Virus record (IMG/VR): IMGVR_UViG_3300037484_000235
Span: 1 to 64,000 of that record
Reading direction: 5' to 3' (one strand)
Origin: a virus
Taxonomy: Duplodnaviria > Caudoviricetes
DNA: 64,000 nt
Position 1 is the stretch's first letter. Each line of letters begins with the position of its first letter. Below are positions 28,135 through 47,868 of this stretch, in pieces. A program made the position numbers and the translations under genes. The notes below the pieces were generated by a model. It saw nothing but the letters and a program-made list of their open reading frames with translations, made no database searches and was not told the origin of the DNA.

Positions 28135-29052
28135 TCACTTGGAGGCTCCATGTTGTGCGGTTACCATGGCACACAAGGTGTGAAAGTACTCAATAGGAAA
28201 CTCCTGTTTCATTTTGTTGATATCCTTGTGTACCCACTGCACGTTCCCCTCAATGTACCCTAATTTGCTGTTTATCCGGTCAACGGAAGCATCGTTTTTA
28301 TTCCTTGTGCGGAGGCTGAATGGAATTGGCATTCCAGTGAGCACACACCGTCCCTTTTGTGCTTCGTACAGAGACCACAGATACTCTATGGTGACTTCGA
28401 ATGGTATGGCCCTCACCTGCGCCCCTCTTCGGATACGACCAAAGAATGTCGTTGATAATAGTCCCACACCTGACCATGCACCTCGTGGTGCGCAACCACA
28501 GTTGTTTGTCTTGTTGATGGACAACAAATCTGGGCGCACCCTTACCTCATTACCACAGGAACATTGACAGATGGCTTTGTACTTCGCGTCTGTTGTGAAT
28601 CCCATAACAGTCAGTTTGTCGAACACATCACCTACGGACACGGAGCGTAGGCCATCCCAACGCTTACGGGTGTTGTTAGAGAGCAGACTCCGAATCTCCG
28701 GCCTGGACTTTAACGCTTTACACAGCGGGTTGAGTTCCCCATTGAAGTCAGCGTGATTCTCAGACATCCGGATCTTGGCCTCATCTGTATGTTTTCTCCC
28801 GAAAAATGGATTTCTCTCTCCGGAACTCGCCTCGGACAACTCCTTGCGCCTCTCATTTGAGACCTTGTGCCCCTTACTCCACAGCCCGCATCCGGATTGC
28901 TTACACGTTAAGGATGCGGCCATCTTGGTGGACTCAGATACAAGAGGCATACCCGGGAAGCGCACACGAAACGTTGGGACATCCAAATCGTGCTTACGTA
29001 TGTGGCTCATCAGTGACTTGAAATCACTTTTACATATAGGACATGTGATCAT
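28135..29052 (-). CDS. HNH-type homing endonuclease with zinc finger and NUMOD3
   Basis: CPIC..F..L..HIR.H; NPFFGRKHTDEAK; SVDRINS..GYIEGNVQWVHKDIN. Confidence 0.75.
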   Translation of the reverse strand: MITCPICKSDFKSLMSHIRKHDLDVPTFRVRFPGMPLVSESTKMAASLTCKQSGCGLWSKGHKVSNERRKELSEASSGERNPFFGRKHTDEAKIRMSENHADFNGELNPLCKALKSRPEIRSLLSNNTRKRWDGLRSVSVGDVFDKLTVMGFTTDAKYKAICQCSCGNEVRVRPDLLSINKTNNCGCAPRGAWSGVGLLSTTFFGRIRRGAQVRAIPFEVTIEYLWSLYEAQKGRCVLTGMPIPFSLRTRNKNDASVDRINSKLGYIEGNVQWVHKDINKMKQEFPIEYFHTLCAMVTAQHGASK

Positions 29053-29085: not shown

Positions 29086-30036
29086 TCATTTGGAGACTTG
29101 AGAGGCCCAGAACATCTCTTGGGCCTCTACACACAGGTCATTGAGCTTCCCTATATCGGGGGTCTTTCGAAGAGTGGATTCGGTGTAGAGTACCTGCATT
29201 GCGGCATCTTCTCGTTCAGCCCATGAGATCAGGTCGTCGTACTTCATCTCGCCTCGTCGGATAGCGAGCAGCTCGGCTGCGTCTGGGCGTTTCACGATCA
29301 CACCCTTACCCTCTAGGATCTCCCGACACATTTTCAGGAGACGGACTAGGTGTAATCCGTGCTTCCCGTCAAATCCAAAGGCCCGCTCCATCTCGGAACG
29401 CTTTGGATTACGATTGGCTTTCCAGTTCTCGTGCTGATTCCACCGATCAAGTGCAGCCTTGTACTGCTTTTCCTTTTGGACAAGTTCCATGACATTGGGG
29501 GAAACTTCGATGTCTTCAATGACCATCTTGTCAAAGGCCCCCATCATGTCACTCGTGATCTTCATTGTGGCACTGAGTCCGAACTCCTCTCGGGTTGGTC
29601 TGTGGGTTGGTGGATTGAGAACATATCCCCTATGCGTACGAATCCTTTTGAGTTGAGCCATCGCGTATCCGCTAAATGTGTGGCGTGCCTTCTTCGAGAT
29701 GAAGAGATCCCGGTTGTCTCGGAGGAGCTTGCCCGCTGGGTGCAGCATACGGATATCGGACTCGTCTACGAACAGAGTCTCGATGATGTTCGGATTGCAG
29801 TCCGCAGCAAGGTTGCAGAACTTGCGGATGTCGTAGACAACCGAGTCGAGATCTGGATGGCCGTTCTTGGGGTTTCGTTCACACTGCTCGAACGTATACG
29901 CGAAGCCCTGGACGTGGCTACGAGGGGCGACGGCAAAACCACGGACGTCTACATCTGACTCGGGCGTAGAGGTGCCGTAGGCGTGCGAGCCATAGGTGAC
30001 TAGGTAAACGGTGTGTTCGTCAATGTCGAAGTTCAC
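29086..30036 (-). CDS. DNA polymerase beta-superfamily nucleotidyltransferase (RlaP/Nuc-transf-like)
   Basis: GSHAYGTSTPESDVDVRG, CNPNIIETLF and KHGLHLVRLL motifs. Confidence 0.85.
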   Translation of the reverse strand: MNFDIDEHTVYLVTYGSHAYGTSTPESDVDVRGFAVAPRSHVQGFAYTFEQCERNPKNGHPDLDSVVYDIRKFCNLAADCNPNIIETLFVDESDIRMLHPAGKLLRDNRDLFISKKARHTFSGYAMAQLKRIRTHRGYVLNPPTHRPTREEFGLSATMKITSDMMGAFDKMVIEDIEVSPNVMELVQKEKQYKAALDRWNQHENWKANRNPKRSEMERAFGFDGKHGLHLVRLLKMCREILEGKGVIVKRPDAAELLAIRRGEMKYDDLISWAEREDAAMQVLYTESTLRKTPDIGKLNDLCVEAQEMFWASQVSK

Positions 30037-44321: not shown

Positions 44322-44855
44322 ATGACTGACGCCGATGACCGATCCACAAATGACGACCTGACTGATGACTACGACCCCAACGACTTAGGGGATCTCCAGT
44401 GTGGTATGATTTCATCCACAAGATCAGCGGTGTGTATTCTGAATCCTGGACATGGGGGTATGCACCGTGTCTTTTCCGTTACAACCCACAGTTTTGGACC
44501 CAGGAAGCCTATCCCATTTCCGGATCTGGAAAACATTAACCCAGGAATCCGAGAGACAGTCAGGCTCCTAAATCAGAATGGCTTCCGGACTACAGATAGT
44601 GGTGACGGAAAGACAGGTGACTATTCGTGTGACCGTCCCTACCCATACGTGTCGATTGCTTCAACCCGTGCGGGGTTGATCCAGGATGCAGACGACATCG
44701 CCTTTCTGTTCTCTGAGCACGGTGTTCAAGTCGGAGAACTCACCGAAGAGGGTGAAGGCCCCTACATCCAGGCGATGTACACCCCTCAGGTAAAAAACTG
44801 CGCAATCATCGACATTCAGAATGTCGATGACAAGCTGTTGGGGCTCGTACCCTAA
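44322..44855 (+). CDS. hypothetical protein with TYW3-like motif
   Basis: INPGIRETVRLLNQNGFRTTDSGDG. Confidence 0.55.
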   Translation: MTDADDRSTNDDLTDDYDPNDLGDLQCGMISSTRSAVCILNPGHGGMHRVFSVTTHSFGPRKPIPFPDLENINPGIRETVRLLNQNGFRTTDSGDGKTGDYSCDRPYPYVSIASTRAGLIQDADDIAFLFSEHGVQVGELTEEGEGPYIQAMYTPQVKNCAIIDIQNVDDKLLGLVP

Positions 44856-46459
44856 CCCTTGGTGACGTGCCCATCGTAGAAGTGGAAGAAGACCGGGACC
44901 CTCTCGATCCCCAGCTCCGCCGCAATGGCCAGTCGATGATTCCCTTCACCAACCTTGACTCCGCCTTTACGACCGATTTGGAGGTGCACGGTGCTCCCCT
45001 TCTTCCATCCTCGGCTGTTCATACTGTCCATCAGCTCGTCCCATTCATGTGGTTCCAGACGAGCCTTGTCCCGAGTCCAAACGTACTCCCTGTAGGGTAG
45101 TAGCTCAGACAGACGGACCATCACGGGCATGTCGTCCTCGTACATCTTGTCCCCGAGCTTTTGCCAGTTCGCAATCACGTCTCCCAGGCCCGTGTAGTTG
45201 GAGTAGTACCCAGCGGTACGACCACCATGTGTAACAGTGCCCAACGCCGCCCGCACGGCGTCCTGCAAACGGTCTGGTTGGAAGGCGAGCATTGGTGTGC
45301 TCAGCATCGCCTCGCGAGCTAGAGGGGCCAGTGCGCCCCGGTCTCGGCCCTGTAGGTTGAACTCTGTGATGAGGGCCGTGTTGTCGATCGGTGGCTTCTT
45401 GAGCTTCTCGAAGAACTCGTCAGCCTCATCGCTGATCATCCCCGTGGTGATTTCCCGGAGTCTGACTTGTTGAGGCTTCGTCAGGAAAGCTACGGGCTGC
45501 GACCCAAGCCCAAGGTCTGCCAGATCCAGAAGCAACGCCACCGCACGGTTCCCGTTGCTGAACTGCTTTGCCATGTACGAGGCAAACGGAGCCTCACTTT
45601 GGATCATTTCCGAGAGGGTCTCGATCAGGCCCAGGTGAGCCATTGTGAGAAGGGCCCCACGTGCATTAGGGGTGTCCAGAATGTCTTGCACCAAGATCGT
45701 GGCAATCGCCTCCCATGGCATCTTCTTCATCTTGGGGGCGTTACGCCGGACACTGGCCGCAACCTCATCGGTCAGATCAAGCTCGTACTTGATCGAGAAT
45801 TTAATCAGTCTGAGCATACGTGTTGGATCGTCGGAGAATGTTCGGTCCGGATCCAACGGTGTGTGGAGCATTCGCTCTTCGAGGTGCTGCACGCCAAGAC
45901 CCGTAAGGTCGATGACTTCTGCGTAGTCAGGTCCGTTTGCTAGGTCGAGCAGTCTCCAGAGCAGAGAATTGAGCGTGAAGTCGCGTCGATTTATATCCTC
46001 TTCGATGGTGGCTGGTTGGACATCGGTGGGCTTGTAGCCTTTTCCTTTCCCTTCGGCTCCACCGTAGGACTCTTTGCGCGCATTCGCGATTTCCAGAATT
46101 TCACCCTTCAGCGAGTGGCCCTCAAGTTCCCATTCTCCCTTAATTGTCAGTATGACAACCCCATACTGATTGGTTGTGAGATTCGTTGGGGCTGGGATAG
46201 CCTTGGCCAGTTGATTTGCAAACCACTCTGAGTTCTTGCCGAGCGCGATGGAATCTACGACGACGTCCAAATCATTGATTGGGTACTTGGATCCACCAGG
46301 GTCCATCATGAAGTTACGCACGGCCCCACCAACCACGTAAACGTGACTAGCCACACCCAATTCGATTGCTGTGCGAGACAAGAACTTCATCAGCGCCACT
46401 GAGCGTGCATGCGACCCAGCGTTGAGAAAGCGAGTTGCGACTTGAGATGCTTGATCCAT
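44852..46459 (-). CDS. class II CCA-adding / poly(A) polymerase family enzyme fused to a ParB-like domain
   Basis: YVVGGAVRN, DLDVVV, DINRRDFTLNSL and FSDDPTRMLRLIKF; C-terminal GEGNHRLAIAAELGIERVPV. Confidence 0.85.
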   Translation of the reverse strand: MDQASQVATRFLNAGSHARSVALMKFLSRTAIELGVASHVYVVGGAVRNFMMDPGGSKYPINDLDVVVDSIALGKNSEWFANQLAKAIPAPTNLTTNQYGVVILTIKGEWELEGHSLKGEILEIANARKESYGGAEGKGKGYKPTDVQPATIEEDINRRDFTLNSLLWRLLDLANGPDYAEVIDLTGLGVQHLEERMLHTPLDPDRTFSDDPTRMLRLIKFSIKYELDLTDEVAASVRRNAPKMKKMPWEAIATILVQDILDTPNARGALLTMAHLGLIETLSEMIQSEAPFASYMAKQFSNGNRAVALLLDLADLGLGSQPVAFLTKPQQVRLREITTGMISDEADEFFEKLKKPPIDNTALITEFNLQGRDRGALAPLAREAMLSTPMLAFQPDRLQDAVRAALGTVTHGGRTAGYYSNYTGLGDVIANWQKLGDKMYEDDMPVMVRLSELLPYREYVWTRDKARLEPHEWDELMDSMNSRGWKKGSTVHLQIGRKGGVKVGEGNHRLAIAAELGIERVPVFFHFYDGHVTKG

Positions 46460-46495
46460 GAGGGCTCCACCCAATGCAGAAAATAGACGGCTTCG

Positions 46496-46934: not shown

Positions 46935-47261
46935 CTATTCTGGAGTGTCAATCGACCGATATTCCACAGGTCGGCCTTTGGACTCAGCACGCTCAATACC
47001 GAACCTCATCCCACGTGAGATGCCACGGTCTGTGTAGACGACCGTGGCATCCGCTTTCAATCCCCACGCAAGACCCGCTTCGATACCCCTGGTGCGCTCT
47101 TCCAGAATGAGGTCATCAAGGACGCCATCCTGTGTGTAGAGCAGGTGGCTTGCAAAGGGGGCCTCACCACGTAGAAGGGAATCTCGCATGCACCGTCGTG
47201 CATAGAGCTTGTTCGCCTCTACGTCACCTGCAAATGGACTCTCAAGGATGACGAGTCTCAT
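46935..47261 (-). CDS. nucleoside deoxyribosyltransferase-like (DUF4406-like) protein
   Basis: VILESPFAG...GEAPFASHLLY...YTDRGISRGM. Confidence 0.6.
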   Translation of the reverse strand: MRLVILESPFAGDVEANKLYARRCMRDSLLRGEAPFASHLLYTQDGVLDDLILEERTRGIEAGLAWGLKADATVVYTDRGISRGMRFGIERAESKGRPVEYRSIDTPE

Positions 47262-47328: not shown

Positions 47329-47868
47329 TCATTTGGAAATACCATCCTCTAGATTACGGGAAGCCGTGACGCCGACCTGATCCTGATACTTGGAACTCGT
47401 CCCATAGGGTTTTTCGGCGCTGCCTAGAAGAGCATGAAAGCTTACCTGACAGATCGAGTCCCCCTCTTGAAGCTCCACTGGCGGTCCCGCGATATCTAGC
47501 TCCAGGGTGATGTTCCCGGCAAATCCAGGGTCAATGAACCCAGCTGTGGCATGAATCCTAAGACCGACACGACCCCAGGATGAGCGGCCGTCAACTCTGC
47601 CTACAAGATCTCTGGGCATCACGATACGTTCCCGGGTCCCAATCAGATAGAGCATACCTGGTTTTAGAACCCAGGATCCAACGGGAACAAGTTCCGAGCG
47701 TCCTGGTCGCAATGCCACTCCGTAGGGCGCAGTAACCCTACATAGTGGGCCCACGATTGTCAGGTCTACAGACGCCGGTTGAACCCTCCCCTCGATCTCC
47801 AGGGCCCTGTGGTGGTCTGGAAACAGGGTTGGGAGTAACAGCTTGATCTGAGAGTCCTGAAGAATCAT
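47329..47868 (-). CDS. dcd: dCTP deaminase
   Basis: VQPASVDL, GRSSWGRVGL, AGFIDPGFAGNITLE, ICQVSF and KYQDQ. Confidence 0.9.
   Translation of the reverse strand: MILQDSQIKLLLPTLFPDHHRALEIEGRVQPASVDLTIVGPLCRVTAPYGVALRPGRSELVPVGSWVLKPGMLYLIGTRERIVMPRDLVGRVDGRSSWGRVGLRIHATAGFIDPGFAGNITLELDIAGPPVELQEGDSICQVSFHALLGSAEKPYGTSSKYQDQVGVTASRNLEDGISK

Follow-up and report, generated by a model that had tools for sequence, protein, structure and literature searches.

Architecture of the fusion gene and its nucleotidyltransferase

The subject of this work is a gene located in a 64,000-nucleotide stretch of phage DNA (the window), positions 1 to 64,000 of the IMG/VR record IMGVR_UViG_3300037484_000235 (Caudoviricetes). 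It corresponds to the opening 64 kb of one linear viral record of 252,521 bp, with 56% G+C and a completeness of ~57% (CheckV). The flagged open reading frame (ORF, window 44852..46474, minus strand) has been found to be a single intact gene. Its product, P0001, has 535 amino acids in three parts, a class II nucleotidyltransferase (NTase), a linker modeled with low confidence and a C-terminal domain of 111 residues with an EGNHR motif that the modeling assigns to the fold shared by ParB and sulfiredoxin (ParB/Srx). A first-pass annotation of the window, made from the sequence alone, had proposed a two-part gene at 44852-46459, and the analysis has confirmed it as one fusion gene. The parts of this gene are the following:

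44852..46459, minus strand: whole coding sequence of the NTase-ParB/Srx fusion P0001 (535 codons plus the TAG stop codon at 44852-44854)
46465..46472, minus strand: Shine-Dalgarno-like GGTGGAG, read from the sequence, with a 5-nt spacer to the ATG at 46457-46459
46424..46444, minus strand: N-terminal peptide QVATRFL (residues 6-12), modeled with low confidence and probably flexible
45866..46342, minus strand: class II nucleotidyltransferase head domain (residues 40-198), Pfam PolyA_pol
46256-46330, minus strand: motif A, GGAVRN...DLD (residues 44-65, D63xD65), read from the sequence
45965-45988, minus strand: motif B, RRDFTLN (residues 158-164, RRDFTLNS), read from the sequence
45809-45832, minus strand: motif D, DDPTR (residues 210-214, DDPTRMLR), read from the sequence
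45230..45865, minus strand: all-helical neck, body and tail of the NTase (residues 199-410), including motif D
45188..45229, minus strand: inter-module linker (residues 411-424), with GGRTAGYY (412-419) at 45203-45226, low confidence in the AlphaFold2 (AF2) model
44855..45187, minus strand: minimal ParB/sulfiredoxin-fold domain (residues 425-535, 111 aa)
44933-44947, minus strand: EGNHR (residues 505-509), read from the sequence

The supported start codon is the ATG at 46459, in line with where the closest homologues begin. In the public annotation the protein (P0002, 484 aa) is called from Met52, without window positions 46306-46459 (minus strand). This start was probably mis-called because it drops conserved N-terminal residues, including a helix, and the GG of motif A. 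The ATG at 46459, already selected in the first-pass annotation, is the better choice.

The head domain of the NTase part (residues 1-410) scored 52.1 bits (E 1.1e-13) with the Pfam family PolyA_pol (PF01743), whose cut-off is 23, and P0001 matched PHROG 2244, annotated as 'tRNA nucleotidyltransferase', with an E-value of 3e-24. Catalytic motifs A, B and D are all present in the canonical order. The class II motifs described previously were thus found, with the particularity that motif D is DDPTR, its first residue being Asp versus the canonical Glu of EDxxR, and that this Asp is invariant in 10 aligned homologues. The best solved relatives were Cca1/Cca2 from S. pombe and the A-adding enzymes from Thermotoga and Aquifex, followed by the Bacillus CCA-adding enzyme and bacterial poly(A) polymerases. 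The NTase family includes 531 metagenomic phage proteins at E <= 1e-3 among the candidates scored, with a core of about 405 residues. Many of its members carry N- or C-terminal additions, such as 2H phosphoesterase (17 of the 120 best matches), HD, HAD_SAK_1, inorganic pyrophosphatase (InPase), DUF5661, DUF5872 and many unrecognized extensions. A tblastn search against 50,697 GenBank phage records matched the NTase half alone, with identities not exceeding 34%.

There is good support for a role of the NTase in repairing or maturing tRNA 3' ends. We infer CCA addition as its specific activity; the sequence does not distinguish between enzymes that add CCA, CC or A and poly(A) polymerases. An alternative explanation is that P0001 is a tailing enzyme of phage or host RNAs, which would polymerize poly(A) or oligo(C) or add only A or only CC, and in which the ParB/Srx domain would supply or sense the nucleotide. 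This ambiguity of the head domain, the PDB matches with comparable E-values to both A-adding enzymes and poly(A) polymerases and the family-invariant DDPTR that departs from EDxxR favor this explanation. However, the PHROG and source annotations and the best PDB matches correspond to tRNA nucleotidyltransferases, members of the family are found together with large phage tRNA arrays and with RNA-end-healing modules, and CCA-adding enzymes have already been reported in jumbo phages (PMC7824862). A tailing activity is considered improbable.

A minimal ParB/Srx-fold domain at the C-terminus

Because Pfam gave no match for the C-terminal 136 residues (400-535) at E-values up to 10, the second domain was named by its fold. 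Its only PHROG matches, with families of the ParB-like type, were weak (E 3e-4 to 4e-3). When 1.84 billion representatives were searched exhaustively with HMMER, 338 proteins, counted as protein clusters at 50% identity, were obtained at E <= 1e-3, with 177 of them at E <= 1e-10; a word-indexed search with the region 405-535 recovered 5 proteins, an undercount with respect to the exhaustive search. The members are solo proteins of 120-200 aa and many fusions, and the domain gave no tblastn match in the 50,697 GenBank phage records. As judged from these searches, it constitutes a mobile family without a name, known solely from metagenomic viruses.

In an alignment of 56 sequences, G484 and the block G506-N507-H508-R509 are invariant, E505 is nearly invariant (at least 90%), and R457-E458-Y459, W473-D474 and K502 are also nearly invariant. 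P0001 retains all of these residues. The block GNHR corresponds to the phosphate-binding G-x-x-R/G-x-H-R motif of the superfamily, located where the helix that follows strand 3 begins. The AF2 model of the domain calculated with 56 homologues showed a predicted local distance difference test score (pLDDT) of 95.6 and a predicted template modeling score (pTM) of 0.86. The top 50 Foldseek matches of this model all belong to the ParB/Srx superfamily (best E 7e-4, probability 1.0, template modeling (TM) score about 0.5) and include KorB, 1VK1, Noc, sulfiredoxin, ParB, SerK, SbnI and PadC. With VIA-align, the top three rows had Z-scores of 8.1, 8.0 and 7.9; the highest value was obtained with ParB from M. 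xanthus bound to CTPγS, and sulfiredoxin from A. thaliana gave Z 7.9, with 85 of 89 residues aligned and a root-mean-square deviation of 2.9. The 32 rows listed with Z >= 5 are all ParB/Srx superfamily members. When the 56-homologue profile was compared to PDB sequences, SbnI was the sole match (E 0.2, suggestive and not significant alone), located exactly at its DGVHR motif, with which GNHR is aligned. Structural neighbors in the ESM Atlas had TM scores of 0.72-0.81 and include clusters named 'ParB N-terminal domain-containing protein', in which PF02195 catches 12-35% of the members.

The ParB-like nature of the C-terminal region, proposed previously for a domain of about 100 residues with GEGNHRL joined at GGRTAG, is therefore borne out by a model that matched ParB/Srx structures only; the domain has 111 residues, EGNHR lies at 505-509 and GGRTAGYY at 412-419. 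The model indicates that this is a genuine but divergent, minimal, sulfiredoxin-sized member of the fold. The sequence also indicates that P0001 is not a partition ParB, with no HTH_ParB match and no box III in the protein. It ends 26 residues after EGNHR, and residue 111 of the model aligns approximately with residue 121 of M. xanthus ParB. Pfam ParB_N (PF02195) had no match in the phage record, and on the solo homologue of one related virus it reached 19.7 bits against a cut-off of 26.3.

Two types of chemistry are associated with the ParB/Srx fold: nucleoside triphosphate (NTP) binding together with self-association gated by CTP in ParB, Noc and KorB, and ATP/ADP-dependent phosphotransfer in Srx, SerK and SbnI. 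Domains of this fold are known as CTP switches that act on DNA, as ATP-dependent phosphotransferases and as nucleases, the last of these being disputed; to our knowledge, none has a documented role in RNA repair. Nuclease and NTPase activities of the fold have been reported (PMC5512222). Nucleotide binding is probably retained by the module of P0001, because the GxHR motif and the preceding Glu are kept.

Recurrence and loss of the fusion

Fused proteins with the NTase followed by the ParB-like domain were found in P0001, P0011, P0079, P0085, P0115 and P0170. The last one, of 2970 aa, combines NTase, ParB-like domain and topoisomerase IB and is encoded near capsid-region genes. The reverse order occurs in P0242 and P0272, whose NTase belongs to a different clade (28% identity). 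In total, the fused forms comprise eight protein clusters and one fused ORF from IMG/VR that was not cross-matched to them. Among the 40 strong IMG/VR loci with the domain, three are fused (L029, L037/L041), two of them sharing an identical ORF of 657 aa, and three near-identical phages (L045-L047) carry a solo ParB-like gene 4.5 kb upstream of the NTase gene. All of these proteins are metagenomic, and the second domain lacks a name in every one.

In the tree of NTase cores the fused forms are placed in at least three separate positions, and in the ParB-domain tree they fall into six groups whose nearest neighbors are solo or otherwise fused. The combination appears to have been made several times, as far as can be judged from trees without branch support and, for the second module, from a short domain. 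In the first-pass annotation the fusion had been regarded as unfamiliar; it is uncommon, with eight clusters found, though recurrent. A combination of a CCA-adding enzyme with a ParB-type domain is not described in PMC5512222 or PMC7824862.

Two close relatives, P0003 (417 aa) and P0004 (409 aa), have NTase cores 82-83% identical to that of P0001. The P0004 locus has the same neighbors, the dCTP deaminase gene being upstream and the convergent gene sharing 58% identity with window 44322-44855, and no trace of the ParB-like domain was found in it. The P0003 gene ends at '...GRTAGY*', and the DNA after the stop codon encodes SNYTGLGDVIANWQKL..., with about 83% identity to the window. A TAC-to-TAA change at the second Tyr of GRTAGYY was present in two assemblies (L072 and L073), and the longer contig revealed two single-base deletions causing frameshifts. 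The remnant is located as follows:

L072:1900-2122 and L073:1650-1821: ParB-like pseudogene of the P0003 relative, in two independent assemblies

Shortening of P0003 by the contig end was discarded, as there is a real stop codon with 148 nt beyond it. Since the remnant persists after this stop codon, the common ancestor of the P0001 and P0003 phages had the fusion, and the P0003 lineage is losing the module with its NTase intact. According to these sequences the ParB/Srx module is dispensable for the NTase, an optional add-on rather than an integral part of the CCA enzyme.

The decaying pseudogene of the nearest relative also favors the explanation that the ParB/Srx segment of P0001 is a functionless passenger of recent recombination, or that the long ORF is an assembly artefact. 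However, the open frame in the window keeps all the invariant and nearly invariant residues, at least five other intact fusions exist in unrelated samples, and this domain is the only copy in the record. A passenger or an artefact is considered highly improbable.

Relatives of P0001 also share a short peptide. The first-pass annotation had pointed out an ASQVATRFL leader; QVATRFL, at residues 6-12, is conserved in homologues and represents one occurrence of the motif R-V-A-x-R-[F/Y/H]-L, which is recurrent. In these proteins the motif is located before the NTase core, after the core and, in some, at the extreme C-terminus, with copies at residues 10, 417 and 556 of P0011 and at 7, 414 and 825 of P0027. 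Many unrelated proteins also have it immediately upstream of their ParB-like domain, frequently with (A/G)xYY after it, and GRTAGYY in the window is a shortened version of this element. Both copies in P0001 are located in low-confidence stretches of the AF2 model, and the linker is probably flexible; the full-length model (pTM 0.39) is too poor to define contacts between modules.

A position-weight scan of the phage ORFs gave 13 motif matches, compared with 3.3 ± 2.5 when the ORFs were shuffled. The motif is rare in other viral loci (5 matches versus 1.5 expected), and two of these five matches are NTase N-termini. Three proteins of the phage carry it at about residues 5-12: the NTase, L008 (G000 100234-100704, plus strand; 156 aa, starting MQPSARRVAARHLAA..., with a weak M78/M48-type metallopeptidase signature) and L009 (G000 121503-122846, minus strand; 447 aa, starting MVPSAIRVSQRFIEA...). 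In addition, L010 (G000 153591-156965, plus strand) is a polyvalent protein of 1124 aa with HAD_SAK_1 (25-162), topoisomerase IB (199-398), about 700 further unassigned residues and RVSTRYL at about residue 492. L013 (G000 77401-78180, plus strand) is a C39-like cysteine peptidase of 259 aa with KVATRFV at about residue 185; that it processes the motif-bearing proteins is pure speculation. The peptide might mark a module boundary, serve for docking or act as a processing/packaging signal. A twin-arginine translocation (Tat) signal was rejected, because there is a single Arg followed by F-L, there is no hydrophobic core, and copies are also internal or C-terminal. The C-terminal end of DUF5661 was also rejected, as DUF5661 is a different element (...GIEVEQEHL...IAMDHLTEIPDYYTRL...). 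DUF5661 itself recurs as a small inter-module element (P0046:420-469, P0096:448-496 and P0102:304-355) in multidomain proteins of both the NTase and the ParB-like type.

Possible functions and comparison with known systems

The source of P0001 is a tRNA-rich jumbo phage, since the 252,521-bp record contains 46 tRNA genes, in an array at G000 102336-116928, and a transfer-messenger RNA (tmRNA) gene at G000 168034-168418 with the tag ANDNSYALTAIAA, both outside the window. The CCA end is encoded in 37 of the tRNA genes and is lacking in the other nine. P0001 is the only PF01743 protein in the record (55.2 bits in the genome search). The window also contains a gene of an RNA-repair nucleotidyltransferase of the RlaP family (29086-30036, minus strand, E 8e-24), which adjoins a gene encoding a NUMOD3-motif protein (28135-29052, minus strand). 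RNA ligase (PF09414 and PF09511), RtcB, 2H, AAA_33 and ParB_N were not detected in the 252-kb record, and these absences are weak because the record is only ~57% complete and the PF09511 control matched nowhere. The genes closest to the fusion are the following:

44322-44855, plus strand: convergent gene of 177 aa without Pfam match, with a 4-nt overlap with the NTase stop codon (a 58% identical counterpart lies beside the ParB-less NTase of L001)
46935-47261, minus strand: gene of a DUF7768 protein
47329-47868, minus strand: dCTP deaminase-like gene

The mechanism proposed for P0001 has two parts. The NTase (residues 1-410) is expected to work as other class II enzymes do, and would use CTP and ATP, without a nucleic acid template, to restore or finish the CCA at the 3' end of host and phage tRNAs. 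Metal binding would fall to D63 and D65 and recognition of the ribose to RRDFTxN, and the amino-acid 'template' would be DDPTR. Because nine of the 46 tRNA genes lack an encoded CCA, the enzyme could mature this minority of phage tRNAs and also repair trimmed ends. The second module (residues 425-535), in which the phosphate-binding GxHR (EGNHR) and a conserved acidic residue are kept, would bind an NTP, either CTP or ATP. This module might process tRNA 3' ends that are blocked or abnormal before CCA is added or, alternatively, gate the enzyme through NTP-dependent self-association. We give about an even chance to the ParB/Srx module being an accessory of the same tRNA-end pathway; its NTP binding, the CCA specificity and the coupling between the modules are presumed features of this mechanism.

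Gene contexts elsewhere are in part those of RNA repair. P0242 is encoded in an operon of Metallophos, HD, AAA_33 kinase, the ParB-like-NTase fusion, RNA ligase, RlaP and DNA ligase. In 54 other multidomain proteins with the domain, the commonest recognizable partners were HAD_SAK_1 (3) and 2H (3, plus LigT and tRNA_lig_CPD matches), AAA_33 and DUF5661 being partners as well, and the genes neighboring ParB-like genes include RlaP, TROVE and RF-1. The tRNA-repair role suggested in the first-pass annotation is supported in part, by this RNA-repair setting of the P0242 operon and of the HAD_SAK_1, 2H and AAA_33 partners. The selective advantage might lie in countering tRNA damage by host defenses, as proposed in that annotation, or in maturing and maintaining the 46 tRNAs of the phage itself.

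Several observations argue against a role of the ParB/Srx module in a tRNA-end pathway or leave the activity of the NTase less certain. The DDxxR form of motif D makes the nucleotide specificity uncertain, and in 37 of the 46 tRNA genes of the phage the CCA is encoded already. The domain is promiscuous, being fused to VanY/M15, PcfJ, topoisomerase IB, C39 and M91 peptidases, PARP/ADP-ribosyltransferase (ART), Tad6 and S-adenosylmethionine (SAM) lyase, and about six of the 40 viral loci link it to the NTase. In six IMG/VR loci the solo gene is found between resolvase-like genes, a primase and an SbcCD fusion, a DNA context. The P0242 operon already has an end-healing set (Metallophos, HD and kinase), which makes a healing role redundant there. 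Finally, the nearest relative (83% identity) has inactivated the module and kept the NTase, and P0004 lacks it. The block of RuvC/resolvase-like, resolvase-like, ParB-like, primase and SbcCD-fusion genes was located at L030:4887-10625 and also occurs in L023, L032, L033, L034 and L038.

Some of these observations bear on another explanation, in which the ParB/Srx module is an independent effector that shares the chain with the NTase only to be made, or packaged and injected, together with it, and has a target other than tRNA; it might be a DNA nickase or NTPase regulated by NTPs, or act on a nucleotide signal, with the NTase tending the tRNA ends. Very diverse partners (topoisomerase IB, peptidases, ART, Tad6), solo genes in replication/recombination clusters, the position of P0170 beside capsid-region genes and the loss of the module in the nearest relative without harm to the NTase gene would agree with it, and a precedent exists in the polyvalent proteins with DdrB-like ParB domains, for which injection is predicted (PMC5512222). 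The polyvalent-style architecture, the shared N-terminal peptide and the location of P0170 near capsid genes are indirect hints of the virion delivery considered possible in the first-pass annotation. However, the NTase fusion is recurrent, occurs in both domain orders and, in its reverse form, lies inside an RNA-repair operon; the gene in the window is located among small accessory genes near the dCTP deaminase gene and not among structural genes; and the domain lacks a helix-turn-helix (HTH) or any other DNA-binding part. An independent effector is considered rather unlikely, and the accessory role in the tRNA-end pathway is retained as the preferred explanation.

A more specific proposal, to which we assign a small chance, is that the module is a new NTP-dependent RNA-end enzyme that clears blocked or mis-extended tRNA 3' ends before the CCA is rewritten, and that RVAxR[F/Y/H]L is a shared sorting/processing signal of phage cargo modules. 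The candidates to be cleared would be a 3'-phosphate, a pyrophosphate or extra nucleotides added by host toxins of the CapRel or MenT/AbiE type. The motif stands at the head of P0001 and of two further proteins encoded by this phage, and in relatives modules are found between copies of it.

A virus-only branch of the ParB/Srx fold seems to have been joined to CCA-type enzymes several times, also in an RNA-repair operon, and may be a lead to a new activity in the contest of phages with tRNA-targeting defenses. The intact, freshly pseudogenized and cleanly deleted forms in three close relatives constitute a natural experiment on the worth of the module.

When compared to the CTPase N-domains of ParB, Noc and KorB, the C-terminal domain of P0001 shows the same fold, the same block order (L-P...R, helix-G, G-E-x-x-R helix and V-P-V strand) and a conserved Glu before Gly, as in GERR. 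However, P0001 ends before the box III (ENLQR) helix, it has neither an HTH nor a dimerization domain, and Pfam ParB_N fails on it and is sub-threshold on its relatives. The minimal ParB/Srx phosphotransferases (sulfiredoxin and SerK/SbnI) are similar in size, have the same fold and show G-x-H-R in the same place. The identity to this group is 13-19%, an Asn in P0001 replaces the catalytic Cys of sulfiredoxin, and the C-terminal domain of SerK/SbnI is absent.

With respect to the NTase, Cca from E. coli, which has an HD domain, and the CCA-adding enzymes of jumbo phages (PMC7824862) share with P0001 the head domain, the motif order and the helical body and tail. The latter enzymes also come from tRNA-rich jumbo phages, as here, and E. 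coli Cca has, like P0001, a second C-terminal domain that handles phosphate or nucleotides. In P0001, however, this second domain is ParB/Srx and not HD, motif D is DDxxR, and a family-specific helix and peptide are present at the N-terminus.

From its sequence and that of its relatives, P0001 is classified as a two-module protein of the polyvalent or 'Swiss-army-knife' type from a tRNA-rich jumbo phage, because its ParB/Srx domain is found elsewhere attached to modules of the 2H, HAD_SAK, kinase, topoisomerase IB, peptidase and ART types; the modules joined to this domain and to the NTase are shuffled among relatives. In the phage polyvalent proteins (Iyer et al. 2017, PMC5512222) the ParB domain is DdrB-like, whereas the family of P0001 is missed by every Pfam model. 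These polyvalent proteins and the 'Swiss Army Knife' RNA-repair proteins also place shuffled modules on one chain, draw on a shared set of partners (2H, HAD_SAK_1, InPase, kinase, ART, peptidases and a ParB-type domain), are confined to phages and show rapid gain and loss of modules, as observed here.

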